From an uncultured virus (IMG/VR IMGVR_UViG_3300028602_000008) (lineage: Duplodnaviria; Heunggongvirae; Uroviricota; Caudoviricetes), in IMG/VR virus record IMGVR_UViG_3300028602_000008: a DNA stretch of 64,000 nucleotides; one strand, written 5' to 3'. The notes below the pieces were generated by a model. That model was given only the letters and a program-made list of their open reading frames with translations. It was not told the origin of the DNA and searched no databases. Shown here piece by piece: positions 1-51,348 of this stretch. Numbering within the stretch: position 1 is the stretch's first letter; every line of letters begins with the position of its first letter. A program made the position numbers and the translations under genes.

Positions 1-233
1 CTGCAACGGGTGTTATGGATATGGCTTTGGATGCGATCGCTTGGGCATACTACAATTTGGCAGGAACAGTTGGATCGTTGTACATGCAAGGAACGCTAGG
101 CGACGTTAAGCTGCTCGGCGGCGGCGCTTGGGCTGTTGCGACGCGTGCCGGGTCGCGGGCGCGTTGTGCGGCTTACTCTCGCTGGTATGCGCATACGTCT
201 TTCGGCGGTCGCTTTGTCGCGGAGCCACAATAA
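1..233 (+). CDS. DGR target protein, 3' end (C-type-lectin/FGE-sulfatase-like fold; probable receptor-binding or adhesin protein), truncated by window start
   Basis: Open frame to TAA at 231-233; C-terminus LLGGGAW...FGGRFVAEPQ is typical of CLec-fold VRs and its DNA matches the TR at 287-403. Confidence 0.9.
   Translation, partial: ATGVMDMALDAIAWAYYNLAGTVGSLYMQGTLGDVKLLGGGAWAVATRAGSRARCAAYSRWYAHTSFGGRFVAEPQ
111..227 (+). repeat. DGR variable repeat (VR)
   Basis: 117 nt ungapped match to 287-403; 29 of 30 mismatches are at TR adenines. Confidence 0.97.
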
Positions 234-242
234 TTGTTATTC

Positions 243-263
243 GGAGTGCGGAAGTCGCACTCC
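243..263. promoter_or_regulatory. DGR target-recognition hairpin/cruciform downstream of VR
   Basis: GGAGTGCG-gaagt-CGCACTCC, perfect 8 bp stem starting 10 nt after the target stop codon. Confidence 0.85.
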
Positions 264-286
264 ATTAATAGGTTGAGCGAGTCTAC

Positions 287-403
287 CTGCTCAGCAGCAG
301 CAATTGGAATAATGCGACGAATGCCAGGTCACAGGCACGTAATGCGAATAACTATCGCTGGAATGCGAATACGAATATCGGCAGTCGCTTTGTCACAGAT
401 CCA
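287..403 (+). repeat. DGR template repeat (TR)
   Basis: AAT-rich copy of the VR (reads LLSSSNWNNATNARSQARNANNYRWNANTNIGSRFVTDP in VR frame), directly upstream of the RT. Confidence 0.97.
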
Positions 404-512
404 GGAAAATCGCGGAGAGCAACTCCTGGCTGGACTCGCTAACCTTGTCGAGAGGCAAAACACACAACGGAGGAGGAAAACAATTAGTACATAATGGAAA
501 GTTGTCTTCCTC
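401..512 (+). ncRNA. Structured spacer of the DGR template RNA between TR and RT
   Basis: Stems CCAGGA(401-406)/TCCTGG(424-429) and GAGGAAAACAAT(473-484)/GTTGTCTTCCTC(501-512); position matches the priming spacer of characterised DGRs. Confidence 0.65.
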
Positions 513-522
513 ATAAATTATC

Positions 523-1521
523 ATGAAACGACACGGAAATCTATTTGGGAAGATAACGGATTTGGATAATATATATTTAGCATATGCTAAAGCTAAAAAA
601 GGAAAAAGTTGGCAGAATACGATTAGTCGGTTTGATGATGACTTGGATGAAAATATATTTAATATTCGAGATTCGTTAATTGAAAAGACGTTTACAACAT
701 CATCGTATATTGAAAAAATGATATATGAACCAAAACAAAGAATCATTTACAAGTTACCCTTTAACCCAGATAGAGTCGTGCAACACGCCTTAATGAATAT
801 ATTAGAACCAATATGGAATGGATTGTTTATTTACGATTCGTATTCATGCAGGATCGGAAAAGGCATCCATGCTGCCAGCCGACGAACTATGGATTTTATT
901 CGAGCTACAGGACCTGGTTCATATTGTTTGAAAATGGATATCAGAAAATTCTATCCATCTATAGAGCATGATATTCTTTTTGATATAGTAAAAAGAAAAA
1001 TCAAATGTGAAGATACTCTTTGGTTATTAAAGGATATAATTTACAGTATTCCCGAAGGCAAAAATATACCCATTGGTAATTATTCTAGTCAATGGCTTGG
1101 AAATTTATACATGAACGAATTAGATCAGTATTTAAAACACCACCATAGAATAAAACATTACATTCGATATTGCGATGATTTTATAATATTACACCAAGAT
1201 AAAAAGTTTCTTGGTAAAATGGCACATGATATAGAAGGATTTTTGATGGATACTCTAAAATTAAAACTGAGCAAGAATGACATTTTTCCGATTAGCCAAG
1301 GAATAGACTTTTTAGGTTATCGACATTTTCCTAACCATATTTTAGTTAGAAAATCCACAGCGACTAGAATTAAACATAGAATGCATGAACTTCCGGGAAA
1401 ACTGTATCGAGGTGAAATAACCCCAGACCAATATCAATCTTCAATTGCATCAACCAAAGGTTGGCTTCTTTGGGCAAACAGTTATAACTTTATGCGGTCA
1501 TTGGAGCTTACTAATGCCTGA
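523..1521 (+). CDS. DGR reverse transcriptase
   Basis: 332 aa; DRVVQHA, LKMDIRKFYPSI, PIGNYSSQ (DGR-type SQ motif), RYCDD, GIDFLGY; no maturase or endonuclease domain. Confidence 0.97.
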   Translation: MKRHGNLFGKITDLDNIYLAYAKAKKGKSWQNTISRFDDDLDENIFNIRDSLIEKTFTTSSYIEKMIYEPKQRIIYKLPFNPDRVVQHALMNILEPIWNGLFIYDSYSCRIGKGIHAASRRTMDFIRATGPGSYCLKMDIRKFYPSIEHDILFDIVKRKIKCEDTLWLLKDIIYSIPEGKNIPIGNYSSQWLGNLYMNELDQYLKHHHRIKHYIRYCDDFIILHQDKKFLGKMAHDIEGFLMDTLKLKLSKNDIFPISQGIDFLGYRHFPNHILVRKSTATRIKHRMHELPGKLYRGEITPDQYQSSIASTKGWLLWANSYNFMRSLELTNA

Positions 1522-11671: not shown

Positions 11672-12352
11672 TTAACCACCTCTTATCTGATTACAGCATT
11701 CCAAGACATTATCCAAAGGTCTTTCATATTTAGACCAATTAGCTAATGATTTGGGTGAATCGGTTATACTAAGGCTGGTATTAGTATTTATCTTCTCTCC
11801 CGGTATCAACCAAAGATGTTCTGGTATCAACGTTTTTCGATCTTTCCACGCGATGCAAAGGAAAAAATGGGCTTTCTTATTACAGCCGATATGGAAATGC
11901 CAAACATCATTTCCTGCTTTGGGGTGATATCTACAACTCGATTTCACGTCTATCTTGAAGCCCTTGGGACATTCATAATCGTAGTCGGGATTGTTATTAG
12001 GCATCCTCACAAATCCCGGAAATTCTTGCGATAAGACGGTTTCCGCTATGACGCAACCAAGATAAAGTGAGCATGATTTGTTTTCTGACGCGGGTTTAAT
12101 ACCTAGAGTTTTATAACGGTATTCTCGATTATATTGGTTTACCGTTTTTCGATGTCTTTTTTTCCAACTTCGTTTTGTTGCTGCGACCTGATCTAGGTGA
12201 GTGTTCTTCCAATTCAAAGTTTCTAGGCACGCACATTTTTTGCAATGATTACGTGGCTTTCCGATTTCTCGACCCGATTTATGAAAATTGAACTCACTTA
12301 AAGGTTTATCAGTATCGCATCCTCCGCAATGCTTCATCTCCAATGTCATCAC
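11672..12352 (-). CDS. Zn-ribbon + PD-(D/E)XK-like endonuclease, paralogue 1
   Basis: CGGC...KPLSEF...CKKC; AE...PDYDYECPKGFKIDVKSS. Confidence 0.7.
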   Translation of the reverse strand: MMTLEMKHCGGCDTDKPLSEFNFHKSGREIGKPRNHCKKCACLETLNWKNTHLDQVAATKRSWKKRHRKTVNQYNREYRYKTLGIKPASENKSCSLYLGCVIAETVLSQEFPGFVRMPNNNPDYDYECPKGFKIDVKSSCRYHPKAGNDVWHFHIGCNKKAHFFLCIAWKDRKTLIPEHLWLIPGEKINTNTSLSITDSPKSLANWSKYERPLDNVLECCNQIRGG

Positions 12353-18793: not shown

Positions 18794-19058
18794 CAGCCTC
18801 TGGTGGGTTATGAGTGTAACATTCGCAGTTTAGCGGGCTATCCTTATCCATCCAAAACGTGCGGCAATGGCCACATTGCCATTCAAATGATGAGGTAGCA
18901 CCGATTTTAGCTACTCCGTGCAGGGGGTTGACATCCTGAAAGGCGTATGCGGAGAGACCGTGACAATTAGGACATTCTTCAATGCTCCCATCTTCAAGAA
19001 GAGCTTTTATCCGCTTTGGCCAGTTGATTAATGCTCGTTTAAACTTCATCATTATCAC
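18780..19058 (-). CDS. Zn-ribbon protein
   Basis: CPNC...WQCGHC. Confidence 0.65.
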   Translation of the reverse strand: MIMMKFKRALINWPKRIKALLEDGSIEECPNCHGLSAYAFQDVNPLHGVAKIGATSSFEWQCGHCRTFWMDKDSPLNCECYTHNPPEADENE

Positions 19059-19059
19059 C

Positions 19060-19284
19060 TCATAAGTTTATTATCTTTGCCCAGCCTTTGGAGCCTGGCA
19101 TGTTCACATAGTTATGATGGTCTAGGCATAATGCATGGCCGCAGTGGGGTTTTAGGCCAAATTGGCTCATCACCCATGCTATGGCTGCGGTTCGACTCGT
19201 GAAAGTATCTGATTTTGTTTCATTATTCAAAAAAATAGTTGCTTTGGTTGGTGCTGCTTTGGGTTTCTTCATCAAATTAGGCAT
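19060..19284 (-). CDS. Hypothetical protein
   Basis: Packed operon. Confidence 0.55.
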   Translation of the reverse strand: MPNLMKKPKAAPTKATIFLNNETKSDTFTSRTAAIAWVMSQFGLKPHCGHALCLDHHNYVNMPGSKGWAKIINL

Positions 19285-19424
19285 GTTGAATCTCCCTCAA
19301 CTGGGCAAGTAGGTCTTGCATTCTTAGGACTGCATCAGGGTTAGAGAATTCGTCTCGCTCAGTTTTATCGGAAGTAGAGGAGACGGCTCGCATAGCTTCA
19401 TAAATCTCATCAGGGCTCATCAGA

Positions 19425-20081
19425 TCACCTCTTCATTTTATCACAACATTCTAGAGCATTCTTTAATGAACGCTCATATTTAGACCATTTAGCTAATGAT
19501 TTAACTGTATCGGGTATGCTAATATTTTTTCGGTCATTCACCAAGTATCCCGGTATCAACCAAATGTGCATAGGTGTTAGTGATTCTAAGTCATCAAATG
19601 CTATAAATATGAAATAATGAACTCTTTTGTTATTTCTTACACTAAAGACCCATCGGTTATTTCCGATTATACGAGATCGTCTTGTAGACGATTTAACATC
19701 TATCAGGAAACCCTTCGGGCATTCATAATCGTAATCAGGATTACCAGGTGGCATCCTCTTAAAGCCGGGAAACTCGTGCGATAAAATAGTTTCCGCTATG
19801 ACGCAACCCAAGTATGCTGGGCATGCTTTATTTTCTGATGCTGGTTTTGAACCATGTTGATAATGATATTCACGAACACGTTTTCGGTTTTCATCAGGAT
19901 GTCTTTTATGCCACATATTTGCCTTTTCTGGATTATCTGCCTCCCATTTTTTTACCCTACCCGATTCACATTCCCTACATCGGCTAAGTGGTTTTCCTGC
20001 ACATCGACCAGATTTACGAAAATTGAACTCCTTTAACTCTTTATCTTCTCCGCACCCATTGCAATGTTTCAAAGTCATCAA
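19425..20081 (-). CDS. Zn-ribbon + PD-(D/E)XK-like endonuclease, paralogue 2
   Basis: Clearly similar to 11672-12352 (YLGCVIAET.LS.EFPGF.RMP..NPDYDYECPKGF.IDVKSS). Confidence 0.7.
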   Translation of the reverse strand: MMTLKHCNGCGEDKELKEFNFRKSGRCAGKPLSRCRECESGRVKKWEADNPEKANMWHKRHPDENRKRVREYHYQHGSKPASENKACPAYLGCVIAETILSHEFPGFKRMPPGNPDYDYECPKGFLIDVKSSTRRSRIIGNNRWVFSVRNNKRVHYFIFIAFDDLESLTPMHIWLIPGYLVNDRKNISIPDTVKSLAKWSKYERSLKNALECCDKMKR

Positions 20082-20120
20082 CTCTTATCGGTTTGCTACC
20101 TATTTAAAAGTTGTGATGAG

Positions 20121-20564
20121 TCACTCATCACGAGGATAACCTCCTTCCGGTAACCACATGGGAGTATTCTTGCCAACTTCAAGACCTTCAAGTCTAGCTT
20201 TTATATAATTATAGGCAGCAGTCCATTTTCCGATAGGAGCCTCTTCACCGTAGCTCAAACTTGCAATTTTGCTTATCCACAAAAGCATAACCGGGTGGGT
20301 AGCTACAAAATCGGTACCCTTCCCGTAAAATCGGGCCTCATCCCAGATACGAGGGATTAGTTCGGCCAGGTCCGGCACTAGGGCTCCGGCGTTGCAGGCA
20401 TTCAACATTTGCAAGGTGTTCTCAAAATCGCGTTGGGTTAAGCCTTTTTTCGGCTCATCATGGTTGTGGGGTGTCTCAGTCATAGTTTTTTCCTCCATTA
20501 AATCTAGCTCATCATCACTGTAAGGTTTTCCGCCGTCAGCAAAGCCTTCATCGGAAAGAGTCAT
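20121..20564 (-). CDS. Hypothetical protein
   Basis: Packed operon; QMLNACNAG...HPV motif. Confidence 0.65.
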   Translation of the reverse strand: MTLSDEGFADGGKPYSDDELDLMEEKTMTETPHNHDEPKKGLTQRDFENTLQMLNACNAGALVPDLAELIPRIWDEARFYGKGTDFVATHPVMLLWISKIASLSYGEEAPIGKWTAAYNYIKARLEGLEVGKNTPMWLPEGGYPRDE

Positions 20565-20790
20565 TGATTAACCTCTCCAGCAGTTCGCGTTTTCCGTGCC
20601 AGTTGACCCAAATTGGATGAAAATTTCCAATTGATCTTCCGTCACCTATGCGTTTATAGACCTTGCCGGTATCCTCATCAGTGATTAAAACTTCTATCCT
20701 GGTATGGTTTCCAGCTAAATCAAGGCATTGAACGGAGGCTATATTGGCCGACAGGTGATATTTCGGCTCATCAGGCTTACCAGAATTCAT
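20548..20790 (-). CDS. Hypothetical protein
   Basis: GRSIGNFHPIWV motif; RBS. Confidence 0.6.
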   Translation of the reverse strand: MNSGKPDEPKYHLSANIASVQCLDLAGNHTRIEVLITDEDTGKVYKRIGDGRSIGNFHPIWVNWHGKRELLERLINDSFR

Positions 20791-20904
20791 TTGGGGTCAT
20801 CTCCTCAGTCACTGTGGTCAACCACGTCCAAGCGTAGTAGCTAGCAGTCAAAGCTAAGGCGCATAACATGATTAGGACTTCAAAATAATGGGGTTGCATA
20901 CGAA

Positions 20905-21111
20905 TTACCTCATCAGGTGAGCGAATCTAAAGACTTTTTCGCATTGTCGAACATACCAAGACATTATCGGTATTCCGATGTACTTATATGAGAAATAGAT
21001 CATCAGCATATAGGCTAAGACGATGACCACACAGGCTAAATCTGTTATCTGCATTTCGAAAACCTCATCAACTTGCTTGAGAGCCGTCTCGGAGGCGTGG
21101 CGGCTCTTCAA
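20905..21111 (-). CDS. Small membrane protein
   Basis: One hydrophobic helix; start uncertain. Confidence 0.45.
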   Translation of the reverse strand: MKSRHASETALKQVDEVFEMQITDLACVVIVLAYMLMIYFSYKYIGIPIMSWYVRQCEKVFRFAHLMR

Positions 21112-21208
21112 GGTTATGGGGTTTAAATGTATGCCTGTGTAGGCTCCATGCCCACTAGCTCACCATTGTCGTAGTAGTAATCAACTCCATCAACTTCTTC
21201 AATGTGCA

Positions 21209-21631
21209 TTAAGCCACCGCCATCAAGGTTGCTTTTACCTCATCATTGGCCGGGCCGGCCCAGAATGGGTTTTTGTTGCCGAACGGATTAACCGGAACAT
21301 TGACGTAGTAACCCATTTTATGCTCGGCACGGAAGCCTCGGAGGGTAGCTAAAAGGGCCTCATCGGGTTTGCCGTTGGTTTGAATTGCAACCATTCTTTT
21401 GTCCTTGAAAGTGTACTCAAGGACGCGGGCCTCGGTAGCAATTGGGGTTTGTGCCCTCATCGGGACTTTTGGCTTGGGTGCAGTGATGGCGGCGGCTTTG
21501 GCCTTTACCTCTGCTGGGTTGTGGGCCGCAAGGCTAGTAAAAACCATTATGCTGGTGAGTATTTCTTCATCACGGATCAGGCTGACGTTTTCAAGAATCT
21601 TCTTGACAATTGCATCGGTTTTCTTGGACAT
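21209..21631 (-). CDS. Hypothetical protein, first gene of the leftward small-ORF region
   Basis: 140 aa, TATA-like element about 60 nt upstream. Confidence 0.7.
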   Translation of the reverse strand: MSKKTDAIVKKILENVSLIRDEEILTSIMVFTSLAAHNPAEVKAKAAAITAPKPKVPMRAQTPIATEARVLEYTFKDKRMVAIQTNGKPDEALLATLRGFRAEHKMGYYVNVPVNPFGNKNPFWAGPANDEVKATLMAVA

Positions 21632-21704
21632 TTTGCATCATTTCCTCATATTGTGTTTTCCCTAGTATTGGCTCATCAGGGAAACTATAATAAATTTTTA
21701 GCCG

Positions 21705-22230
21705 AGGCTCGCCAACTCCCATTGGCGCTAATCCAGAGATTAGCAGTTCGAGCCTGTCGTTACTATTCGGTTCTGTAGCTCCCGTTTTTGGTCCTTTTCG
21801 GTGTCACCTAATCAGGATTAACGAGAATGTCAGTAGTAAAGGCGTTTTACGATCTTCAAGTTTAGACCTTATCAGAGACTCTGCCCATTGATGAGATGGA
21901 ATTTCTCTGTGGCAGTCTCCCTCTAAACTTTGCAGTAGGTCTATCAATTCCTACATTGAGATTGATCGCTTAACGTCCTTATCAGATTGCATATTATGAG
22001 GTTACTTTTTCGGCGAACTTAGGTTATGGGTAACCTAATCGTGATCATTTTTGCCTCATCTTTAAGGAGTTATGGCTAGCTCCGGCAATCTGGGAGAGGT
22101 TGCTTTATCAATCCCTTCGAATTTGGCAGATTAAGCTAACATGCTATGTTTATTAGACCACTACACGCTAGCTTAACATAACCGCTGCATGCCGTTTATC
22201 CGCTTTTCAGCTTTTGACCTATAACGGATA
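21705..22230 (+). ncRNA. Candidate large structured non-coding RNA
   Basis: No credible ORF; at least 10 nested or consecutive helices, with G-U pairs on the + strand. Confidence 0.55.
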
Positions 22231-23215
22231 TTAAGCCTTGACTATACTTTGCAATTACAGTATAGACTTATCAAGGACGGCTCGGTTTATTAACTGGGCC
22301 TTTTTAGGGTGGGTTTTGCCGTGTTTGGTTTTTGGACTTTTAGACCGGCACAACGGACAGATTAAGCCCTTTTCCATCAATGGGTTTAATGTGCCGTTGT
22401 CCGTCTCAACTTTTTTGTTTCACCTTCCTTATTTGCGGTTTGTTCGTTTGGCGGTTTGGCGGTTTGGGTTTTCCGTGTTTCTTGTTTTCGTCGCGATTGA
22501 TCACCTTTAAACGCTTGCCGTTTGGGTTTTCACCCTTTCGGGCTTCACCCTTTCGGTAGCTAACCCTTAGGTTTTGAGTATATAAAACCTCGTGACTGAT
22601 AACGATCACCAACGTATTAAAGAGTGTAATGATGTACTAAAGTGTACATTGATGCACAAGATTTGTGGTGCCGTTCGCGGTTAGTTTGAAGGTGAAAAGA
22701 TAAAACATGGCTGCCGGTGCGGTTTTGGCCGTTCGCGGCGCGGCGCGGGCCTTTTGCTGATATGGGTTTTGTGGGAGAGATAGAGAGATATAGGGGAACG
22801 AATAAAAACGCATAGCGGTTTTGCGGCGCGGAGGCGGGCCGGTTTGGTGCGGGCCGGTGCGCCCGGTGGATAAAAAAGGGTTTGCTGATTGCGGCGCGGG
22901 CCGGGCCGAAGGGTAAAAAGGTTTTTTGGCTCTATATTAGTGCCGTTTCACAATGGCGCTAGATTGCGTTTTATGTGGGATAAACGGCGCTATATGCGAT
23001 TTTAACGGCACTATATATAATTTGAACGGCACGATATTTTTGGATATATAAAATTAACGTAGATATATTTGAAATAGATTGAAATGAATTGAGACACGTA
23101 AGACTTAAAGCCGAGGTTTAAAGGATTCAAGTGATAAGTAGCGCCAAAAGCATAGAAGATTAGGCTAAGGGCCGGAAAAAGGCCTTTATGGACAGATTAA
23201 GAGGAGAGTTAAAAC

Positions 23216-23746
23216 TTAAAAATGAATGGACTCCGAGAGATGAGTTAAAACGGTGTCACAGTGAATTAAATAATCTGCTAAAGTGCGGTTACCTTTCGCC
23301 GTGTTGCATCGATAACAAACTATTCGAACGTTGGACTTAGTTAAGATGGATTCATTATTTATACGGTCTAGGGTTGCTCTGTGGTCATAATCGCTATTAT
23401 GTGGAGGTGCATAATTTAGAGTTATTCCACAATATGCACAAGTCGGAGAAGCTAAAGCGAAGGATTCAAGCCATTTAGCACTAAACTCAATTGCATACTT
23501 CTTAAAATGATTGAAGTAAGAAGTAGCCGCCCAAACACGGCAAGGATACTTTGCTCTATACGTTTTTACATGCTTTTTGTGCTCCATTGGGTGAGTTATT
23601 CTACGATCTTTTGAGTATGAATTAACGCACTCTCGACACCAGGTTTTTAAGGCTCCGGTCTTTTTGTATGCTACTGAAAAAGACGATTTTGGTAAAGATC
23701 TTTTGCAACGGCGACACCTTTTAAAGCCCGGTAAAACTGCTTTCAT
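23216..23746 (-). CDS. HNH endonuclease with N-terminal Zn ribbon
   Basis: CRRC...CREC; CAYCG...TLDRINN...NVRIVCYRCNTAKG. Confidence 0.88.
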   Translation of the reverse strand: MKAVLPGFKRCRRCKRSLPKSSFSVAYKKTGALKTWCRECVNSYSKDRRITHPMEHKKHVKTYRAKYPCRVWAATSYFNHFKKYAIEFSAKWLESFALASPTCAYCGITLNYAPPHNSDYDHRATLDRINNESILTKSNVRIVCYRCNTAKGNRTLADYLIHCDTVLTHLSESIHF

Positions 23747-24519
23747 AGCTTTACTGTATATGATTTAAGGTTTAAATACTTTACTATGATATGACTGATA
23801 ACTATTTATAGGGGAATAATGGCCACTGATGACGGTTAAACGGATGGATTTTAAAGGGAAGAGAGATTTTAAAAAATATTTGAAAATAATGCTACTTAAA
23901 TTTGAGTTAATTAATTTGAAAAACTATAATAGGGATATTTTGAATAGATATAATAATATCCTATTAAGCCAATTGGTACATAATAGGTTAATGTGCATCA
24001 ATGTGCATCAGTTAAGCATAATGTACGAATGTGTCCATTCCGGTCAAGGGTTATCTTGCCGTTCGCCGTTGCTAAAAGCCTTCTCCCGGCTTTTAGCGCA
24101 TTCGGCGTTATCGTATGTAGTAGAAGGTAGATAATAGATAAAAGGTAGCTAGTAACATGATAAGATTAAGTAGATAATTAAGGATTGAAGAGAAGAGAAA
24201 AAGAGAAGAGGGAGACGAATAAGTACATTAATGTACGTTGGGAAAAAGCCATCCGTGACAAAATACCGACACCAGGAGACGGATATAGATGAGGTTAATA
24301 TGAGGTTCATATCTGCTTAATAGAGCAAATCTGGTGGCTAATGTCGCTTTTCGTACATTGGCCAAAGTGAATGTACATTGATGGACGTTTTCAGGTTATA
24401 CTGTACACATGTGTACAATAGCGCACAGTAAAAAGCATGGATGTGCAAAACCAGGCATGGTAGCACGATAATAAGCAGTAATGTTTAAATACAGACAGAA
24501 AAATAAAAGGGGGGGCGAA

Positions 24520-24765
24520 CAGGCCGACCTTAGTCGGCCCAAGCGGTCAGCAGACCGCCGTAACCAGGGATCTACGGATCCCCGGACCCCTAACCGAACG
24601 AAAAGCCGGGGGGTATGGGGGGTTGCAATCCCCCGAGAGAAGGGGATCCGGGGATCCCCCGAAGCACCCAGGACTGGACTCCCCCGGACGGAAACCAGCC
24701 GGATGGCAGGTGTCCAGCAGGAACCCAGGGTACCCAAACCGGTGGGAGACAAGTCTCCCGGCCAG
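24520..24765. repeat. Cluster of consecutive GC-rich hairpins
   Basis: GGCCGAC/GTCGGCC, GCGGTC/GACCGC, GGGATC/GATCCC, GGGGG-GTTGCAAT-CCCCC, GGGGATCC/GGATCCCC, GGGAGAC/GTCTCCC. Confidence 0.8.
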
Positions 24766-25071
24766 CCATCTCTTATTGCCTATCGTCCAACTTAACCATA
24801 TAACTCTAAACCTATCTACCATCTAGCTCATCTAATCTACTATCAATCTAACCTACTCAATCTACTCTTATTATTTTATCTCTCCTCCTCCTATTATAAG
24901 AAATCGAATTAATTAGCAGCAGACCTGATTTTTTTCAAAATATTTTCAAACATTTTCAGAAGTTTCAACTGCTATCGATTTTACCCCCAATCCATCGCCC
25001 AGCACCCATCCCCTTTCGTCACCAGTCACAACACCGTTAAGTATTTAATCTATTACCTCATGTAGTGTGAT

Positions 25072-25752
25072 ATGAATAAAGATACCAAATTCTGCTGGAA
25101 TTGTAATACAGAGAAACCATTATCTGCATTTGGTATACGTAAAACTGGAAAGAACGCAGGAAAACCTACTCATCCATGCCTAGAATGTCGAAATGCCCTT
25201 AAAAGACAATGGAAACAAGATCATCCAGATAAATATCAGGAACGGCAAGCTAGATATAACCAACATCGTAGAGAACGCCCAGGTCACACACAAATGGCCG
25301 ATAATCCAAAATGTACTCTCTACCTAGGGTATTTCATTAGTGAAACGGTATTGTCTCGTGAATTCAAAAATGTTAAACGAATGCCAGTAACTCACCCAGG
25401 TTACGACTTCGAATGCAATAGACACTTTAAAATCGATGCCAAATCATCGTGTTTAGTCAATGCATCACGAGGTGGTTCATATTGGCAATTCACAATCAAA
25501 TGCAACAAAGTCCCTCACTTCTACCTTCTCATCGCCTGGGACAATCGTGACAATCTCAATCCAATCCATATATGGCTAATACCAGCAGCCCTGATAAACA
25601 TGAAAAAGATCATATACATTGGAAACACCGAAAAGAGTCTAGCCAAGTGGAAAAAATATGAACGTCCATTGACCAACGTCTTATCCTGTTGCAAAACAAT
25701 GCGTGCCAAAAAGTTACTTGAAGAGGATATCGAAGAGGTACTTCACCTCTAA
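25072..25752 (+). CDS. Zn-ribbon + PD-(D/E)XK-like endonuclease, paralogue 3
   Basis: CWNC..KPLSAF; YLG..ISETVLS.EF...PGYDFEC..FKIDAKSS; HIWLIP; SLAKW.KYER.L.NVL.CC shared with paralogues. Confidence 0.7.
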   Translation: MNKDTKFCWNCNTEKPLSAFGIRKTGKNAGKPTHPCLECRNALKRQWKQDHPDKYQERQARYNQHRRERPGHTQMADNPKCTLYLGYFISETVLSREFKNVKRMPVTHPGYDFECNRHFKIDAKSSCLVNASRGGSYWQFTIKCNKVPHFYLLIAWDNRDNLNPIHIWLIPAALINMKKIIYIGNTEKSLAKWKKYERPLTNVLSCCKTMRAKKLLEEDIEEVLHL

Positions 25753-25787
25753 TTTATCCCTTTTTTATATTGCTATCGAAATATCCC

Positions 25788-26018
25788 CTAAACTCTCCAC
25801 ATATCTCCCCCTCCAACCCCTCTACTGTTATCGAAAAGGTACCGATTGATCGGAGGTCCATCCATCACTTCGATCACCACCGGATAAGTCCTCAGTGCCA
25901 CTCCACAAGCCTTATTCCAGCTCGTGGCCAGCACTGCACCCATCCTCTCCATACCGCCCTCACAAACCCTATACCTCACCCGGTAACGGTTAACTGCGGT
26001 TAACCCCGGCACAACCAT
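25788..26018 (-). CDS. Hypothetical protein
   Basis: Packed minus-strand operon. Confidence 0.5.
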   Translation of the reverse strand: MVVPGLTAVNRYRVRYRVCEGGMERMGAVLATSWNKACGVALRTYPVVIEVMDGPPINRYLFDNSRGVGGGDMWRV

Positions 26019-26254
26019 GCTCCAGCCCCATCCCAGTCCTCGAACCAGTACTTCGGCAAACGACAGACTCTCTTAATCCGCGTCACAGCTTCCTTCACCA
26101 GATAATCATCCTTGCAAGTAATCGCCAGGCACGCCCCCAGGGCCGAATACGTAACCATCTTCTTTTCTGCAATCTCATGAAATATGGCCCTCCTCGTATT
26201 CCACAGCAGCAGATCCATAGCCCTATCCATATCCAGCCTAACGTTTAACATCAT
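26000..26254 (-). CDS. Hypothetical protein
   Basis: Packed minus-strand operon. Confidence 0.55.
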   Translation of the reverse strand: MMLNVRLDMDRAMDLLLWNTRRAIFHEIAEKKMVTYSALGACLAITCKDDYLVKEAVTRIKRVCRLPKYWFEDWDGAGAWLCRG

Positions 26255-26705
26255 CTACCCACGCTCCAATTGATCTCAGGTACTGAATCATTTCCGTGGT
26301 TGCCAGCCCGGTGGTCTTGGCCAGGGCGATCCACAGTGCACTATTGTCCATATCTGGCACCTCAATTTTAGCATCCTCACAAAACACCGTATCGCTACCA
26401 AGATACGGATAAAACCTGCATACCAATGGTCTGTCATCGTAAATCCTACATCCTTTTTTATAAAATTTGCATGGTTTTGATTCCCTGAATATAAATCTCC
26501 CTTTGTCTACCGGGTGCTCGGCGCAAAACTTAACCATCGTTGCAGCCAGGTTCTGATGAAAGTGCCTCGACAGCCGATTCATATCCTCCACACTAAGGTC
26601 AATTATTTCAAATTCAGTGCAACATCTCCCACATCGGTTGCACTTTAAAAGGACCTGTCTAATGGCCCTTTCCTTCCAACCCGGTGCCCAGCTCATTTCG
26701 GGCAT
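26238..26705 (-). CDS. YkgJ-family (CxxCxxCC) Fe-S/Zn cluster protein
   Basis: CNRCGRCC...PCKF...CRIYDDRPLVCRFYP. Confidence 0.88.
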   Translation of the reverse strand: MPEMSWAPGWKERAIRQVLLKCNRCGRCCTEFEIIDLSVEDMNRLSRHFHQNLAATMVKFCAEHPVDKGRFIFRESKPCKFYKKGCRIYDDRPLVCRFYPYLGSDTVFCEDAKIEVPDMDNSALWIALAKTTGLATTEMIQYLRSIGAWVDDVKR

Positions 26706-27046
26706 TCCTCAACTGCAGCCATGCACTTGGCATAAGCTTCCTCATCGTTATTCACCAGGGCCTTGCCAAATATAACAGGGTTTTTAGCCTCACCCATCAC
26801 TGCAGCCAGTATTGCCCCATAGACCGGGCCATCAACATCATTTAGGTGCATGTCCTTGATATGATCATCCACAGCAGCCCACATGGGTCTTAAATCCGAG
26901 AAACCCATCACGAATTTTCCTGCAGCACTAGCCAATTCATTGTATCTTTCGGTACTCAACCCTCGGTAAAATGCAAACGAAACCGAAATCGCAACCGCCT
27001 GACTGTTTGACCTCAACAGACCAACATAAAATGTATTCTTATGCAT
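26693..27046 (-). CDS. Hypothetical protein
   Basis: Packed operon. Confidence 0.6.
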   Translation of the reverse strand: MHKNTFYVGLLRSNSQAVAISVSFAFYRGLSTERYNELASAAGKFVMGFSDLRPMWAAVDDHIKDMHLNDVDGPVYGAILAAVMGEAKNPVIFGKALVNNDEEAYAKCMAAVEECPK

Positions 27047-27051
27047 AGAAA

Positions 27052-27519
27052 TCAGAACCTCAATATCTCTTCATCATCGTCAACGATCCTCATTAAGGTC
27101 GTATGTTTTCCTGAATCTGCCTTAGTTTTCTTCGCAACCTCCACCACCGGACATGTTCCAAAATACCTTTCCATATACCCTGATACCTGCCTCTTAACAT
27201 ACTTCTTTCCGCCTCTCACCGTTCTTTTTTCCTGGTCACTAACCAGAGGATACAGCACCCATTGGTGGGAAATGATAGCCTTCCTTTCTTTTCCTCCAAC
27301 CACAACCATCTTCTCTTTTGGACATATTTGTACATCGCCAACCATATGTCTCATATAATCCGGAATTGATCTCACTTCAGCGTACTCTGCTGCCGTTCGT
27401 GTCAGATCATTCTGCAAATCCACCATAACCATGCTAAGCATCGGGAAATCGCATACAACCATCTCCCCCTGCATCTTCCCCTTGCCCACCAAATGAGCCA
27501 TCGACGTTGGAATCATCAT
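27052..27519 (-). CDS. Hypothetical protein
   Basis: Packed operon. Confidence 0.65.
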   Translation of the reverse strand: MMIPTSMAHLVGKGKMQGEMVVCDFPMLSMVMVDLQNDLTRTAAEYAEVRSIPDYMRHMVGDVQICPKEKMVVVGGKERKAIISHQWVLYPLVSDQEKRTVRGGKKYVKRQVSGYMERYFGTCPVVEVAKKTKADSGKHTTLMRIVDDDEEILRF

Positions 27520-27624
27520 GCTTCACCCATCTCTTCTTGTACTTCGAGAGGTTTTTGATCCTTTCTCTTTTCCTTCCGGAAGCAAGTACAATCGCCATAT
27601 TCCTCACCACATCCTCTGCAAATA

Positions 27625-27861
27625 TCAGACAATAAGCTCACCCTCAACCTCACGCAAAGCCAATTTAGCCAGGCTCGTTGGCTCATACAAAATGCACCCA
27701 TTTCCATCAGATACACGAGTATCGCAGCCCTTCATATCGCATGCGGCCATAACATATGAATCAATTATAAACATGCGTACCTGTCTATGATGAATTCGAT
27801 TCCAGTGGGTACAATAACCACAAATATGATAGCATACCAACCATTCATTGTATGTGGTCAT
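27625..27861 (-). CDS. Small Cys-rich protein
   Basis: C..CGYCTHW...C...C; overlaps neighbours. Confidence 0.5.
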   Translation of the reverse strand: MTTYNEWLVCYHICGYCTHWNRIHHRQVRMFIIDSYVMAACDMKGCDTRVSDGNGCILYEPTSLAKLALREVEGELIV

Positions 27862-28516
27862 GAATCAACATCCTTCCCGTTTCAATACTAGATACCGAAT
27901 AATCCAGATATTCGCATAGCCCAAACCCAAATTCCCGAAGCTGTTCCTGACTGACCACCCCATGACCCGAGCCCTTACCTATCGCAATTCTGATCGGGAA
28001 GCCCTTCAATGCACCCATGGTGAAGAAGTCAAACTGGGACTCCGGGAAGAGCACCATCCTAATCTCAGCTCGCCTAGGATCGAGTCGGGCCAGGTTAGAC
28101 ATGAGACTATCAAAACTGCCGGGAAAGCCTGTGTACGAGTCGTACAGGGCCCTCTCAAGCGAAGTTTTGATGTCAAGGAATACCCTGTCAGCCCCGGATG
28201 CAATGGGACCACAGCCCGAGGTTTCAATTCCAACATCCATGCCTAGCTCATGGCAATAATCGATGATTCGGAGGCATGCACTCAGTTGACAAGCAGGCTC
28301 GCCCCCAGAAATAACCACATGACCCACAAACCGGCATGCATCCAGGATTGCAGCCTTGATAACGTCGAAGTCAACCATTTTCGTGGTCATTCTGATCTGG
28401 GCATTGTGGCAGTTGGGGCATTTCATTGGGCAGCCATTCAGAAAGAGGACCAGGGCCGAATGGCCAAACCAATCTATGGTGCTCAAATCCACCTTACCAG
28501 CGTAATTGACCATCAT
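27845..28516 (-). CDS. nrdG: Radical SAM protein, anaerobic ribonucleotide reductase activase-like
   Basis: STIDW.G...VLFLNGCPMKCPNCHN, VVISGGEP, LDIK. Confidence 0.75.
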   Translation of the reverse strand: MMVNYAGKVDLSTIDWFGHSALVLFLNGCPMKCPNCHNAQIRMTTKMVDFDVIKAAILDACRFVGHVVISGGEPACQLSACLRIIDYCHELGMDVGIETSGCGPIASGADRVFLDIKTSLERALYDSYTGFPGSFDSLMSNLARLDPRRAEIRMVLFPESQFDFFTMGALKGFPIRIAIGKGSGHGVVSQEQLREFGFGLCEYLDYSVSSIETGRMLIHDHIQ

Positions 28517-28870
28517 TTTAGCAGCTCCAATATCTCTTTGGCAAGGTTCATGGCCTTATGCTGTTTCATTCCCTTGAGCGTTGCAATGGCCAGGACGGAT
28601 TCGATCAGGCCGCGAAGAAAGCCATGTTGAGTATCAGTCAAGGTAATTGTTTTCATAGAGACTCCCTAGTCATGTAGTGGTCGAATAGATTATGTCGCGG
28701 TTCTTTTGGCCTTTGTCGTTGACAAAATCGTTGCAGCCTACGACTATTCGCATGGCACGGAGGTTGCTATTGCAGCCATCATTGTGGCAATCGTCACAAA
28801 GACAACGCTCTGGATCTTTTTCGGCATGTATTTCCATAATTAGCTACTCCATATGCTATACTCAAGCTGT

Positions 28871-29026
28871 TCAAGACGTGAAAGTGCCAACTTCAATTGC
28901 CCCCGTGGAGACTAGATCGGCTAATTTGCCGGTAGCTGTTAGATAACGGGTTAATTCAACTGGTAGTACTTCGCCTTCGTAAAAGTCCAGAAAGAAGGCC
29001 TTCTTTACTTTTGCAACGTATGCCAT
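28871..29026 (-). CDS. Small hypothetical protein (51 aa, below ORF-track cutoff)
   Basis: MAYVAKVKKAFFLDFYEGE...; AGGTGA RBS, starts 1 nt after upstream stop. Confidence 0.55.
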   Translation of the reverse strand: MAYVAKVKKAFFLDFYEGEVLPVELTRYLTATGKLADLVSTGAIEVGTFTS

Positions 29027-29027
29027 T

Positions 29028-29171
29028 TTAGGTCACCTGACAGGCTGGGCAAGGATGTGTCTCGGTTTTGAGAACAGGCTTGCCATCGATTATTTCAACT
29101 CCACAGGACATGCTGACAATTTTTCTGCCTTTACATAATGAGCAGTTGGAAGAATCACCTTGGCTTTCCAT
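29028..29171 (-). CDS. Small Zn-finger protein (47 aa, below ORF-track cutoff)
   Basis: CSLCKG...CPAC; TTTAAATA box about 30 nt upstream. Confidence 0.55.
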   Translation of the reverse strand: MESQGDSSNCSLCKGRKIVSMSCGVEIIDGKPVLKTETHPCPACQVT

Positions 29172-29372
29172 ACTACGTATTTAGGGGGTGTACTTATTTA
29201 AACTTTTTGATAGCAAGTGCAAAAGGTTTATCTGTGAGAACATCCTTAATAGTTTCATGCGAGTAGATCCATTGGTAATTATGGAAAAAGGAGTAATATC
29301 TGGAACACCCATGCGGCCAATGAGAGCATGCAAAGCAAAAATGATTATGGCACCCGCAGGAGGCAAACTACG

Positions 29373-30080
29373 GTGAATGAAGCTGTCGTGTTAGATATCG
29401 AAACGATCCCTGGGAATCAGGCTCAGTTGAACATGTATAAGACTATCAAATGCACCCATTGCAAGTACAATCCCGAGACGCACCCCAAGCAGAAGAAGGA
29501 TTATTGCGGAGAATGTGATGAGGATGCAGCCCTGAAGTGGCCTACAGCACAGATAATCTGCATTACAGCCAAGGTGGTGGGCGAAGACGGGGAGATGTGG
29601 TGCTTCTGCGAGAAAGATGAGTATAAGGTGATCAGTAAGGCTTATGATTTGCTGGCAGAATTGAATCCGAGACCCTGGGTTGGATTTAATGTGAAAGAGT
29701 TCGATTTCGTGCAGCTCAGGATGAGAGGACTGGTGCATGAGATACCGTTTGTGGATATTTTGTCGAGCAATAAGTATGACAGAAATGTGGTGGACCTTTA
29801 CGATAATCTGGTGGGTGGAAAGTGGAATAAACAGCAGAGCGCGACGCTCGAAATGATGTGCGCTATGTTGGGGATTGAGGGAATGCTCTATGGGAATGGG
29901 AGGGACGTGGGAACATGGTACCTGAACAATGAGCTGGATGAGATTGCAAAACACAACAAAGGAGACGTGTTGGCAACCGAAGGGCTGTTTCTAAAGACAT
30001 ATCAAGTGGGATCCAAATACCGATCACAGAAAGTCAAAAAAGAGATAATGGTGGATGAGGAAGAAACAATCAAGTTCTAG
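29373..30080 (+). CDS. Stand-alone DnaQ/PolB-like 3'-5' exonuclease with Zn-finger insertion
   Basis: LDIET, GFNVKEFD, HNKGDV; CTHC...CGEC insert; GTG start after AGGAGG. Confidence 0.85.
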   Translation: MNEAVVLDIETIPGNQAQLNMYKTIKCTHCKYNPETHPKQKKDYCGECDEDAALKWPTAQIICITAKVVGEDGEMWCFCEKDEYKVISKAYDLLAELNPRPWVGFNVKEFDFVQLRMRGLVHEIPFVDILSSNKYDRNVVDLYDNLVGGKWNKQQSATLEMMCAMLGIEGMLYGNGRDVGTWYLNNELDEIAKHNKGDVLATEGLFLKTYQVGSKYRSQKVKKEIMVDEEETIKF

Positions 30081-31270: not shown

Positions 31271-31461
31271 AGGACTTATTTAGGAACTTAACTTAGATAA
31301 AGTTTGTGGTTCTTGAGGTAAACCAGACAGGTTGTAATCTTGAGGACTTTACAACTGGAGACATGTCGGTGTAGGTGGGTAGTCAGGTAATTATCACGAT
31401 TAATCTGTAATGATTAAATGTGTTGTTGTATAGTCGTGTAACTGTAGGTGAGGAAGTCGGT

Positions 31462-31544
<83 letters not shown>

Positions 31545-31909
31545 AACGTTGCGTCTGATTTTTTGTACTATTTTTCACCCATTCACCGACAAACCGACAA
31601 AAAAGGCATGTTCCAAGATAGAAAAGGGCTACTTTACTGCAAAAAAGGTCATTGCATAGTGATATAGGCTTAAATGATAGTTACTTCAAAGTTGTACCAT
31701 GCTAAAGGTTTGAAGTAACTTAGGATGCTTTTTAGCTAAATACCTATATCTAGTTTTTTTCTGTCGGGGGAGGCATGGTCGTAAGGCCGCTAGATACCGC
31801 CACTTCCTAAATCGTTCGCCCGTTGCTGGTTCCAAAAACAGCCTCTTAATAGCGAAAATGCCCATTTTGTGTCGGAAACTAGACGGTTGGGTGTAAGAAA
31901 AAAGAAAGC

Positions 31910-34889: not shown

Positions 34890-35034
34890 GACAAGACTTA
34901 TTTGTCCTATTAGACACAATGGTCAACAAATTTATGTCTTTGATGTATATCATGACAAGACTTATTTGTCCTATTAGACACAATGGTCAACAAATTTATG
35001 TCTTTGATGTATATCATGACAAGACTTATTTGTC
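34890..35034. repeat. Exact 64-bp tandem repeat (2 copies + 17 bp) containing three GACAAgacttatTTGTC inverted boxes
   Basis: Units 34890-34953, 34954-35017, partial 35018-35034. Confidence 0.95.
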
Positions 35035-50157: not shown

Positions 50158-51348
50158 TCAATCTTTGCTATTCAAAACGGCATCCCAGGTTCGTAGGTTG
50201 CCGATGTTGGCCGGTATTTTAAATATCGCGTTTATGGTCTTTGTTTCGCCTGGTTCAACAGTGTAGGGATATTTAGGTTCACCCATGTATTCAAAGTCCC
50301 CGCTCGTTCCGTGTAAAATTACCCCAAGCCATCCATGCCATGCGGCATTACCATTATTTCTAACGGCAAATTCAAATGTCGAGGTGTAAGCCGATGAGTA
50401 GATTTTATTACATGATGGTGGTCCCAACATTTCAAGTGATGGTAGCAATGAGACTGGTGCATTGGATGATCGGCATGGTGTAAGTGCCAACTGTATTCCA
50501 ACTTGCGTACCTACCAGAGACTCTGCCCCAGGAACCCACACACGCCCTTGACCCTCGAGTATGGCAAGTTGGTTAATATTCACGGTATCCGGGTAGTAAA
50601 CCTGGCAAACTTGCCGGCCATAGGAATCCTGTCCCTTGACCACTAATTTGACCACTGTCCCTGGTGGGATCTTATCTGACAACCAGGTCTTAGCGGTTCT
50701 GCCGTTTGGATAGGACAATTCCCCTGAAGAGACACCCTCGAGTCTCACTTCGAAGGGTTTCGTGACGCAGAGCTGCCACGAGGCACAGACCTGGGATGCT
50801 TCGAAGGAGTCTCCGTCGATGATGGTTATCACCCTGGCACTTACCGTAGAACCAGAGATGGGTGTAACCAAAGGCAAGCTTGCGAGATACGAGGCCAGTG
50901 AATTATTGATATTCTCTGATCCTCTGGTTATGATAAATGTGTTGCCAATAGGAGTCAAGGTTAGGTTTGATCCTATGGGTACGTGTAAAGCCAGCCAATC
51001 TCGGGCCTGGGCGTCATTATCTGATGTGGTTACGACACCCTGCAGGGCAATGTTTTTCTGGGTTGCGTCGCATACCTGGCCAGCCAGGCAGTCCAGCAGA
51101 ACGCTTAGGTTGGATCCACTGTTGACGGAAACCAGTTTACCTGTGATTTCCAGACCAACTTGCGGGGGGGTATATACACTACCCAATGCCGAAAAGATCC
51201 AAGCAATATCGGTTGGTCCTACATCGGTATCATTCAGTAAATCAGATTTTATTGCTCGTAGAAGACCTATAGAGCTTAGAACGTTACCACTAAAAAAGGT
51301 AGTAGCGAGCCAGGTCTTGCGAGTGTCTGTGAGTACCATTTTAGACAC
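50158..51348 (-). CDS. Thermonuclease (SNase)-domain protein with C-terminal Ig-like domain
   Basis: IIDGDSF...VRLEGV...DSYGRQV...NIN; V.N.G...W...V.PGET. Confidence 0.8.
   Translation of the reverse strand: MSKMVLTDTRKTWLATTFFSGNVLSSIGLLRAIKSDLLNDTDVGPTDIAWIFSALGSVYTPPQVGLEITGKLVSVNSGSNLSVLLDCLAGQVCDATQKNIALQGVVTTSDNDAQARDWLALHVPIGSNLTLTPIGNTFIITRGSENINNSLASYLASLPLVTPISGSTVSARVITIIDGDSFEASQVCASWQLCVTKPFEVRLEGVSSGELSYPNGRTAKTWLSDKIPPGTVVKLVVKGQDSYGRQVCQVYYPDTVNINQLAILEGQGRVWVPGAESLVGTQVGIQLALTPCRSSNAPVSLLPSLEMLGPPSCNKIYSSAYTSTFEFAVRNNGNAAWHGWLGVILHGTSGDFEYMGEPKYPYTVEPGETKTINAIFKIPANIGNLRTWDAVLNSKD

Follow-up and report, generated by a model that had tools for sequence, protein, structure and literature searches.

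GOLLD, ROOL and OLE are RNAs of several hundred nucleotides (nt) that fold through many covarying helices and multiway junctions and have no coding capacity. To our knowledge, large structured RNAs of unassigned function are rare, and all of the well-studied ones are bacterial or come from bacteriophages; GOLLD and ROOL are often found in phages and prophages. Self-assembly of all three has been seen by electron cryomicroscopy (PMC12286853). Here we describe a similarly large, non-coding and multiply branched element that is also carried by a tailed virus, the uncultured Caudoviricetes genome IMGVR_UViG_3300028602_000008, which was analysed as a single stretch of 64,000 nt (the window). The element lies in a 1.6 kb gap without credible genes (21632-23215). 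It is a genuine non-coding element with a conserved fold of several domains, at least 600 nt long (21705-22300) and probably extending over ~850 nt, as far as ~22560. With a length above ~400 nt, no coding content and compensated helices, it has the attributes by which large ornate non-coding RNAs are operationally recognised. Unlike GOLLD, ROOL and OLE, it has no Rfam match, its host appears to be archaeal rather than bacterial, and it is a string of local domains that are paired almost purely by Watson-Crick pairs, with no excess of G·U. The explanation that we prefer, tentatively, is a structured RNA transcribed from the - strand, either as a separate RNA or as the long leader of an early transcript.

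The fold was assessed on a seven-row alignment (A6) comprising the window, contig C38 of the genome G001, the viral contig G102 and four metagenome contigs (L017, L018, L019 and L020). Pairwise identity over the element ranges from 68 to 97%, with G102 as the outlier at 68-70%. This complete viral contig of 77,180 bp carries a copy of the same family. Its flanks are alike, with a TATA box and an early gene at one end and iterons at the other, but the first third of the element (window 21760-21860) is mostly rebuilt, with insertions. The scans of viral contigs for relatives found only G102, the scan of metagenomes found the four further contigs, and that of genome contigs found G001 together with a chance match, L022. 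BLAST of archaeal genomes was positive in 1 of 101 and 1 of 401, in both cases G001. Three other candidates (L005, L006 and L015) were discarded as chance matches; the phage collection gave no match to the element, and there is no second copy within the window.

A curated model of 23 helices contains 146 pairs over 596 nt, or 966 cells of the alignment. Covariation was gauged by counting paired cells and two-sided changes against 500 shuffles and against controls in which the pairing partner was slid along. A standard pair is formed in 92.8% of the cells, compared with 83.4±0.6% in shuffles and 31-47% with slid partners, and two-sided changes occur in 56 of the 146 pairs, compared with 24.6±3.2 in shuffles and 2-10 in the slid controls. 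For neither count did any of the 500 shuffles reach the observed value. An initial annotation, made from the letters of the window, had described a large and elaborately paired viral non-coding element at 21705-22230 and had proposed that homologues be collected and tested for covariation; on these seven sequences its description is in this respect borne out, and the pairing is conserved. When 21690-22240 is folded as a single sequence, the + strand has z -2.62, a value equalled or bettered by 2 of 100 shuffles, and the - strand z -5.09, which none of 100 shuffles matched. Helices that are long-range and nested also covary, with three pairs in P5b (whose arms are 94 nt apart), two in P5a, four in P3 and two in P6, an architecture that suits a single-stranded fold.

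The domains are listed in Table 1. They are local and follow one another in a string; no global closing helix was supported in the consensus folds. All of the helices named in the initial annotation are found at the coordinates it gives, and all except one are kept in the relatives. At the left-hand junction, P1 (AGGCTCG 21705-11 with CGAGCCT 21749-55) and P1b (GCTAATC with GATTAGC) are each Watson-Crick in 35 of 35 cells, with one and three covarying pairs respectively. The exception is P1a (CCAA with TTGG), which is present in the window but is Watson-Crick in only 15 of 20 cells and lost in L018 and L019. The outer helix of D2 (TTACTA 21760-65 with TAGTAA 21834-39) has one two-sided pair, and this domain also holds a conserved internal C·A at 21782/21824 in six of the seven sequences. 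The helix AAGTTTAGA/TCTAAACTT of D3 contributes four two-sided pairs, and its inner helices three and four more. Within D5, such pairs are found in CAGATTGC/GCAATCTG (three), ATGAGG/CCTCAT (two), TTAGGTTA/TAACCTAA (five) and GGAGTTA/TAGCTCC (two). The D6 hairpin that begins with TTAAGCTA and ends with TAGCTTAA is actually 13 bp long and has five two-sided pairs; D6 also contains an internal A·C at 22141/22166 in five of the seven sequences. The weakest helix of the model is P9: at most one of its pairs covaries (0-1), and 8 of its cells are G·T and 7 are otherwise mismatched; its energy is -9.4 kcal/mol on the + strand and -1.5 kcal/mol on the - strand. Further to the right, the pair 22366/22385 is G·T, A-T, T-A or G-C across the sequences.

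Not everything in the first description of the fold survives comparison. Its end at 22230 was set too early: the P8/P8a hairpin beyond it (22237-75) has nine covarying pairs, folding goes on to ~22404 and sequence conservation to ~22590. Of the pseudoknot suggested between CTCCCA and TGGGAG, only the four-base core CCCA/TGGG is kept, uncompensated, the outer two positions being broken in L017, L018 and L019 and partly in G102. The sequence CCTTATCAGA, said to occur twice, does so in the window, but the second copy keeps only TATCA; a C/D-box or kink-turn reading of this repeated TATCA/UGAUA was inspected by eye and yielded nothing firm. A 10-nt loop-loop match of 21884-93 with 22375-84 is kept in six of the seven sequences, with one G·T change and no compensation. 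Chance alone would give ~1.7 matches of this kind in 1.9 kb, and we regard a contact here as unproven.

Several features point to the - strand. Shuffle z-scores run from -2.4 to -5.2 on the - strand and from +0.3 to -2.1 on the + strand, favouring the former in all seven sequences; the same test orients the RNA of the signal recognition particle (SRP) correctly in five of five cases, by less than 0.1 in two of them. On the - strand, A makes up 39% and U 22% of the unpaired bases, close to the 33% and 19% of SRP RNA in its sense orientation. The consensus fold also has the lower energy on this strand (-132.0 against -121.9), and the AT skew of the gap agrees in sign with the - strand gene blocks. 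Oligo-T is an archaeal transcription stop signal, and the + strand has T5 runs at 21695, 21785, 22006, 22048 and 22301 and ten runs of T4 or longer in 21690-22320, whereas the - strand has none. The z-scores and the five T5 runs both speak against the + strand reading with which the element was first described.

According to the explanation that we prefer, transcription of the - strand, in the same direction as all of the flanking genes, would be initiated close to the TATA-like box at 22576-89 and proceed toward the early genes. The RNA would fold into at least ten self-contained stem-loop and junction domains, whose invariant loops (TCTATCAATT, the 22-nt loop of D7, TTGCAATT and TTTTCCATCA) may be working surfaces for proteins or for other copies of the RNA. 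These invariant loops, some of which are self-complementary, could mediate self-assembly like that of GOLLD, ROOL and OLE. By analogy with GOLLD and ROOL, the role of the RNA would then be structural, or that of a scaffold or decoy, at an early stage of infection. We infer the RNA nature of the element as well as its strand, its ends and whether it is a separate RNA or a leader. Another viral precedent is the packaging RNA of phi29, a virus-encoded, folded, non-coding RNA of ~170 nt which comes from the early end of the genome and multimerises via loop-loop pairing; the element is likewise viral, folded, non-coding and at the early end, but is larger and has no Rfam match. If it is an RNA, this covariation-supported element of 600-850 nt would extend the class of large RNAs to viruses of methanogenic archaea.

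A number of observations weigh against a - strand RNA. The seven sequences represent only ~3-4 lineages. The cells of the curated model comprise 862 Watson-Crick, 34 G·T, 29 A·C and 41 other combinations, and a strand-neutral set of helices (110 pairs predicted on both strands) comprises 708, 6, 11 and 15. These counts also contradict the earlier statement that the imperfect pairs are G-U on the + strand, the window's own row having four G·T and four A·C. As a control, the same script was applied to 24 SRP RNAs of the host family, where G·U outnumbers A·C by 369 to 13 in the sense fold and by 23 to 9 in the neutral set; six random subsets of seven SRP sequences gave 11:5, 7:3, 15:2, 7:3, 11:3 and 22:10. 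Since the pipeline finds the G·U excess in SRP RNA, the method detects the signature of RNA, and the element is without that signature: G·U is not far above A·C on the strand presumed to be transcribed. The consensus energy of the control is -99 in sense and -48 in antisense; for the element the two strands differ far less, at -132.0 (-) and -121.9 (+). Only ~8 pairs show one-sided variation, which is atypical of RNA when set against the 56 two-sided ones. The absence of T4+ runs from the - strand is in itself not significant, as ~1.5 are expected from composition. Some details are of the + strand type: two internal pairs, 21975/22098 and 22002/22053, are conserved as T·G; the pair 22366/22385 varies through G·T, A-T and G-C; P9 is followed by T5; and D5 is more stable on the + strand. 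Finally, on the - strand we found neither a convincing promoter nor a convincing terminator. The strong promoter-like motif of this virus, CTATCACAAACTTTAAATAGGT, has seven sites of at least 20 bits, all on the - strand and 25-45 nt before gene starts (the matrix being built from five of the seven), and has no copy in the gap 21632-23215, where the best score is 7.2.

Much of this would be expected if the structure acted at the level of DNA or of both strands, with stems forming in single-stranded DNA at an unwound origin or on displaced strands, where they would serve replication, for instance by signalling priming or helicase loading or by forming a barrier. We grade this as a serious rival, although on balance we think it unlikely. 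Selection on both complementary folds would mean that only Watson-Crick pairs are tolerated, in keeping with the equal rarity of G·T and A·C in the element (a 2- to 28-fold G·U excess is seen in host SRP RNA), the near-equal consensus energies of the two strands and the predominance of two-sided changes. The setting is also suitable, as the element lies 0.6-1.2 kb from the iterons and AT-rich stretch described below, and three genes of the endonuclease VII/HNH type are found within 4 kb. The intergenic region of f1/M13, the single-strand origins of plasmids and, in phage T5, the 'injection stop' region with its many repeats and palindromes are hairpin-rich, gene-free stretches of 0.3-1.5 kb; such single-stranded DNA signals lie near origins or first-entering early genes, and their pairing is constrained as DNA. 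The element is equally gene-free and hairpin-rich and lies beside a putative origin and early genes, but the hairpins of these signals are mostly simple and local, whereas here there are covarying nested domains of up to 158 nt that are weak as DNA. The curated fold has an energy of -110 to -120 kcal/mol with RNA parameters in three of the four sequences evaluated and just -37 to -43 kcal/mol, over 23 helices, with DNA parameters; for the fourth, G102, whose first third is badly aligned, the values are -47 to -63 (RNA) and +8 to +19 (DNA). As DNA, five of the nine domains (D2, D4, D6, D7 and D9) would be only marginally stable, at +3.3 to -3.1. Helices of 3-5 bp that close large loops nevertheless covary (P6, P3a and P2b), and these would be implausible for DNA that has to compete with its duplex form or with single-strand binding proteins. 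One strand is favoured both by the z-scores and by the skew of the unpaired bases, and we know of no cruciform with nested multi-branch domains of 158 nt. Should the DNA explanation be true, a DNA signal with an unusually elaborate fold would lie next to the origin of a virus. In either case, strict Watson-Crick pairing without a G·U excess makes it a test case for separating RNA from DNA structure in comparative data. We have also considered that the fold matters on both strands, as RNA and as origin-side DNA or antisense, that the strict Watson-Crick pairing is due to this, and that the element is the first giant ornate RNA family specific to archaeal viruses, produced where the early genes begin, next to the origin. 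This we hold to be doubtful; if true, it would be a double-use nucleic-acid structure of a kind not described before.

Transcription of the + strand is an improbable explanation in our judgement. An RNA might start just after the motif at 21682-94 and end at P9 and its T5 (22305), or continue through the G/T-rich tract toward the origin as a structured pre-primer. The latter would recall ColE1 RNA II, a pre-primer in which a folded RNA of several hundred nt lies beside the origin with a G-rich tract between the two, and the element is similar in its size, its nearby putative origin and the G-rich tract between them. In its favour are a purine-rich, B recognition element-like run (GRGAAAY) on the + side of the TATA box, kept in five of five sequences, the terminator-like P9 and T5, far more stable on this strand, the G·T form of some conserved wobbles, and the G-richness of the + strand past 22305 (GC skew +0.16), pointing toward the iterons. 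However, an archaeal TATA box lies ~25 nt before the start site, and a start at ~21717 would fall inside P1a and exclude the 5' arm of P1, which is fully paired with one compensatory change. The T5 runs inside the element, the weak z-scores, unpaired bases that would be 39% U, and A·C as frequent as G·U all count against it. Unlike ColE1 RNA II, the element is ~1.3 kb distant from the AT-rich stretch and would have at least five T5 runs to be crossed on the + strand; runs of T5 or longer toward the iterons are found at 21785, 22006, 22048, 22301, 22329 and 22411. Symmetrical pairing, TATA-like boxes at both ends of the conserved block and palindromes in several loops (TTGCAA and AATT), identical on both strands, would also fit a sense/antisense pair of folded RNAs in which both folds are selected, following the logic of plasmid copy-number control by kissing stem-loops. 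We consider this very unlikely: the + strand RNA would be shortened by its T5 runs, and at 600-850 nt and ~25 helices the element is far beyond any antisense control element known to us. That an AT-skewed spacer folds by chance, or that the stretch hides a coding gene, can be almost dismissed. The single-sequence z on the + strand is modest, and a 41-aa open reading frame (ORF) at 22255-22380(-), the only one of note, is open in four of six sequences, but the covariation is far above that of the shuffled and slid controls. The ORF was rejected as a gene, since the differences are spread evenly over codon positions (7/5/6, 6/4/5, 5/3/3 and 9/8/12); it has an in-frame stop in L018 and a frameshift in G102.

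Comparison with Rfam 15, also suggested at the outset, matched no family. There were no matches at gathering score over the whole window; at E<=10 on 21300-23500 only four sub-threshold rows appeared (small nucleolar RNA, microRNA and long non-coding RNA), none inside 21705-22600, and at E<=1 on six related loci a single sub-threshold small nucleolar RNA row, outside the element. ARAGORN found neither tRNA nor transfer-messenger RNA (tmRNA). Presumably this release of Rfam includes GOLLD, ROOL, OLE, HEARO, raiA, group I and II introns, RNase P, SRP, tmRNA and the phage packaging RNA. Because there is no Rfam match, the element is not a group I or II intron, RNase P, SRP or tmRNA, in agreement with the initial annotation, which had seen no hallmarks of these. 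A group I intron with a homing endonuclease was rejected for the further reasons that the element sits between a gene start (21631) and more non-coding DNA, and that the HNH genes are free-standing. Searches of the literature consulted found no description of the element. A 2023 catalogue of viral structured-RNA candidates contains, supplementary tables aside, motifs of 29-151 nt only (PMC10690425), and the non-coding RNA reported from a haloarchaeal virus is a different one, derived from a transposon (PMC10544981).

Table 1. Coordinates of the folded element, its surroundings and the promoter-like sites of the virus (positions in the window).
Feature	Position	Strand	Basis
140-aa gene, first of the leftward (presumed early) block; no known family	21209-21631	-	ORF list
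Conserved TATA-like box, + strand GAAAYTATAATAAATT, - strand TTTATTATA	21682-21697	-	kept in 5/5 sequences reaching there
D1: three-way junction of P1, P1a and P1b	21705-21755		covariation
D2: P2 around P2a, P2b and P2c	21760-21839		6 covarying pairs in total
D3: 9-bp P3 around P3a and P3b	21858-21930		11 covarying pairs (4+3+4)
D4: hairpin with invariant 10-nt loop TCTATCAATT	21935-21954		35/35 cells paired, 1 covarying pair, loop same in 7/7
D5: 158-nt multi-helix domain, P5 and P5a-e	21958-22115		15 covarying pairs, including P5b and P5a
D6: P6 and 13-bp hairpin P6a	22126-22188		7 covarying pairs
D7: 6-bp helix with nearly invariant 22-nt loop	22197-22230		37/42 cells Watson-Crick, 1 covarying pair
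D8: P8/P8a hairpin, loop palindrome TTGCAA (TGCA in all)	22237-22275		9/12 pairs covarying
P9 hairpin followed by T5, terminator-like on + strand only	22279-22305	+	consensus scan
Further hairpin, R1 (22353-59/22398-404) and R2 (22361-69/22382-90), conserved loop TTTTCCATCA	22353-22404		kept in G102, 3 two-sided changes
Tract G/T-rich on + (C/A-rich on -), weakly structured, GCGGTTTGG-type repeats	22417-22575		direct-repeat families D2 and D7
Second conserved TATA-like box, TGAG-w-ATATA-w-A, at right end of conserved block	22576-22589		kept in window, G001, G102, L017 and L020
Repeated ATGTAC/TGTACA motifs, possible regulator sites	22630-22660		alignment of window, G001, G102 and L020
AACGGCRCTAKAT-like iterons, four to five (4 direct copies, 1 inverted), with AT-rich stretch	22938-23100		repeat families D1, D9, I24 and I25
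HNH/endonuclease VII-like gene, closes the gap	23216-23746	-	phrog_1035, E 7.4e-24
CTATCACAAACTTTAAATAGGT promoter-like sites (start positions)	48447, 31312, 29213, 50155, 20120, 12391, 8714	-	matrix scan

The window is a tailed-virus genome, encoding a primase/helicase, helicases, thymidylate synthase, a QueE-like enzyme and several genes of the HNH/endonuclease VII type. The top tblastn matches of its DNA polymerase are annotated as family B and come from haloarchaeal tailed viruses, at ~25% identity. The nearest genome compared is G001, which has 24% of sampled words in common with the window; its contig C38 is syntenic with 21736-29514 and belongs to a metagenome-assembled genome (MAG) of Candidatus Methanomethylophilaceae. 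Two complete genomes of Methanomethylophilaceae contain archaeal SRP RNA above the Rfam cut-off. We treat the host as archaeal, a methanogen, because of the polymerase matches, the MAG bin of the relative and the archaeal SRP RNA of that family; the assignment of virus to host goes through binning and is tentative.

At its left edge the gap adjoins the start (21631) of a long - strand gene block, and at its right edge the HNH gene 23216-23746 on the same strand. Its AT skew (-0.17 and -0.23) has the same sign as that of the - strand gene blocks. The protein of the 140-aa gene has no PHROG, Pfam or Atlas match; its AlphaFold2 model has a predicted local distance difference test score (pLDDT) of 73.8, and the top Foldseek hit in the PDB library, at E 0.037, is no usable match. 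Homologues of this gene adjoin the element in G102, L017, L018 and L019. The TATA-like box at 21682-21697 is read as a putative archaeal promoter of the leftward early genes, because its distance to the gene start fits such a promoter: the - strand motif lies 54 nt upstream of the ATG of the 140-aa gene in the window and L017 and 44 nt upstream in L018 and L019, and an archaeal TATA box is expected at such a distance. The TATA-like motif reported in the initial annotation is present and conserved but is not supported as the element's own promoter: it lies 11-12 nt from P1, and in four of five sequences the early gene of the - strand has its start codon 44-54 nt downstream of it. In G102 the 140-aa gene is ~330 nt further from the TATA box than in the window, and the box lies 31 nt before another candidate start, the GTG of a different short ORF (read by eye). 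The early-gene 5' leader at 21649-21692 contains an inverted repeat, CCCT...AGGG, and its - strand reads CUGAUGAG. A hammerhead-like CUGAUGA in this leader (21650-21680) was set aside, as it has no Rfam match and is not kept in G102.

Beyond the right-hand end of the fold there follow, in order, the G/T-rich tract, the second TATA-like box, the TGTAC motifs, GC-rich repeats and the iterons. The tract is conserved with indels, and its consensus fold is only -38.8 on the + strand and -26.1 on the - strand. GNRA loops (GAAA and GCGA) on the - strand at 22525-22560 were rejected since their stems, of merely 2-4 bp, are too weak. The iteron region is partly kept in G001, G102 and L020, and together with its AT-rich stretch is probably a replication origin, judging from its repeats and composition. 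A 12-mer, GGACAGATTAAG, occurs in the gap in two exact copies and one variant (22124-35, 22355-66 and 23190-201), and two copies form the 5' arms of hairpins. In G102, four clustered TGGACAG(A/T) repeats are found near the iterons (~75763-75797, read by eye). Both kinds of repeat may be protein-binding sites. A 123-nt terminal repeat in G102 gives no location of the genome ends.

Genes of the HNH/endonuclease VII type occur at 11672-12352, 19425-20081, 23216-23746 and 25072-25752; the first two have 74-83% identical segments in common, promoters included. A relative of the gene that closes the gap is carried by L020. The otherwise syntenic contig C38 of G001 has no nucleotide match across 23162-23886 or 24979-25819, and because both are unmatched there, the genes 23216-23746 and 25072-25752 look like mobile insertions.

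None of the sequencing runs containing the element is on record as RNA. Two wastewater runs labelled 'RNA-Seq cDNA' (X14 and X17; possibly DNA) were compared on 19000-25000 together with X20 (guessed RNA) and a DNA run (X1), using contigs, which cannot show a transcript, its strand or its end. The X14 and X17 contigs cover 20311-22813 in pieces as well as 24427-24828, and are without 19000-20300 and most of 22820-24400; one X14 contig spans 21374-21891. X1 covers 30 of the 30 bins. Because the uncovered parts hold mobile HNH genes, strain difference explains this pattern as well as expression does.

Elsewhere in the window, a second gene-free gap of ~640 nt (31271-31909) lies between - strand genes. 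Two long ORFs are found on the - strand, one of 2515 aa at 54678-62225 with no Pfam family and one of 1111 aa at 51341-54676 with only a weak PEGA domain. Near the left end, a reverse transcriptase gene (523-1521; RVT_1, E 8.5e-20) directly follows two 124-nt direct repeats (111-234 and 287-410), which are 73% identical and arranged like a variable repeat and its template; window 111-1521 is thus a probable diversity-generating retroelement. A perfect 64-nt tandem duplication (34890-35017) lies over the start of the ORF at 34919.

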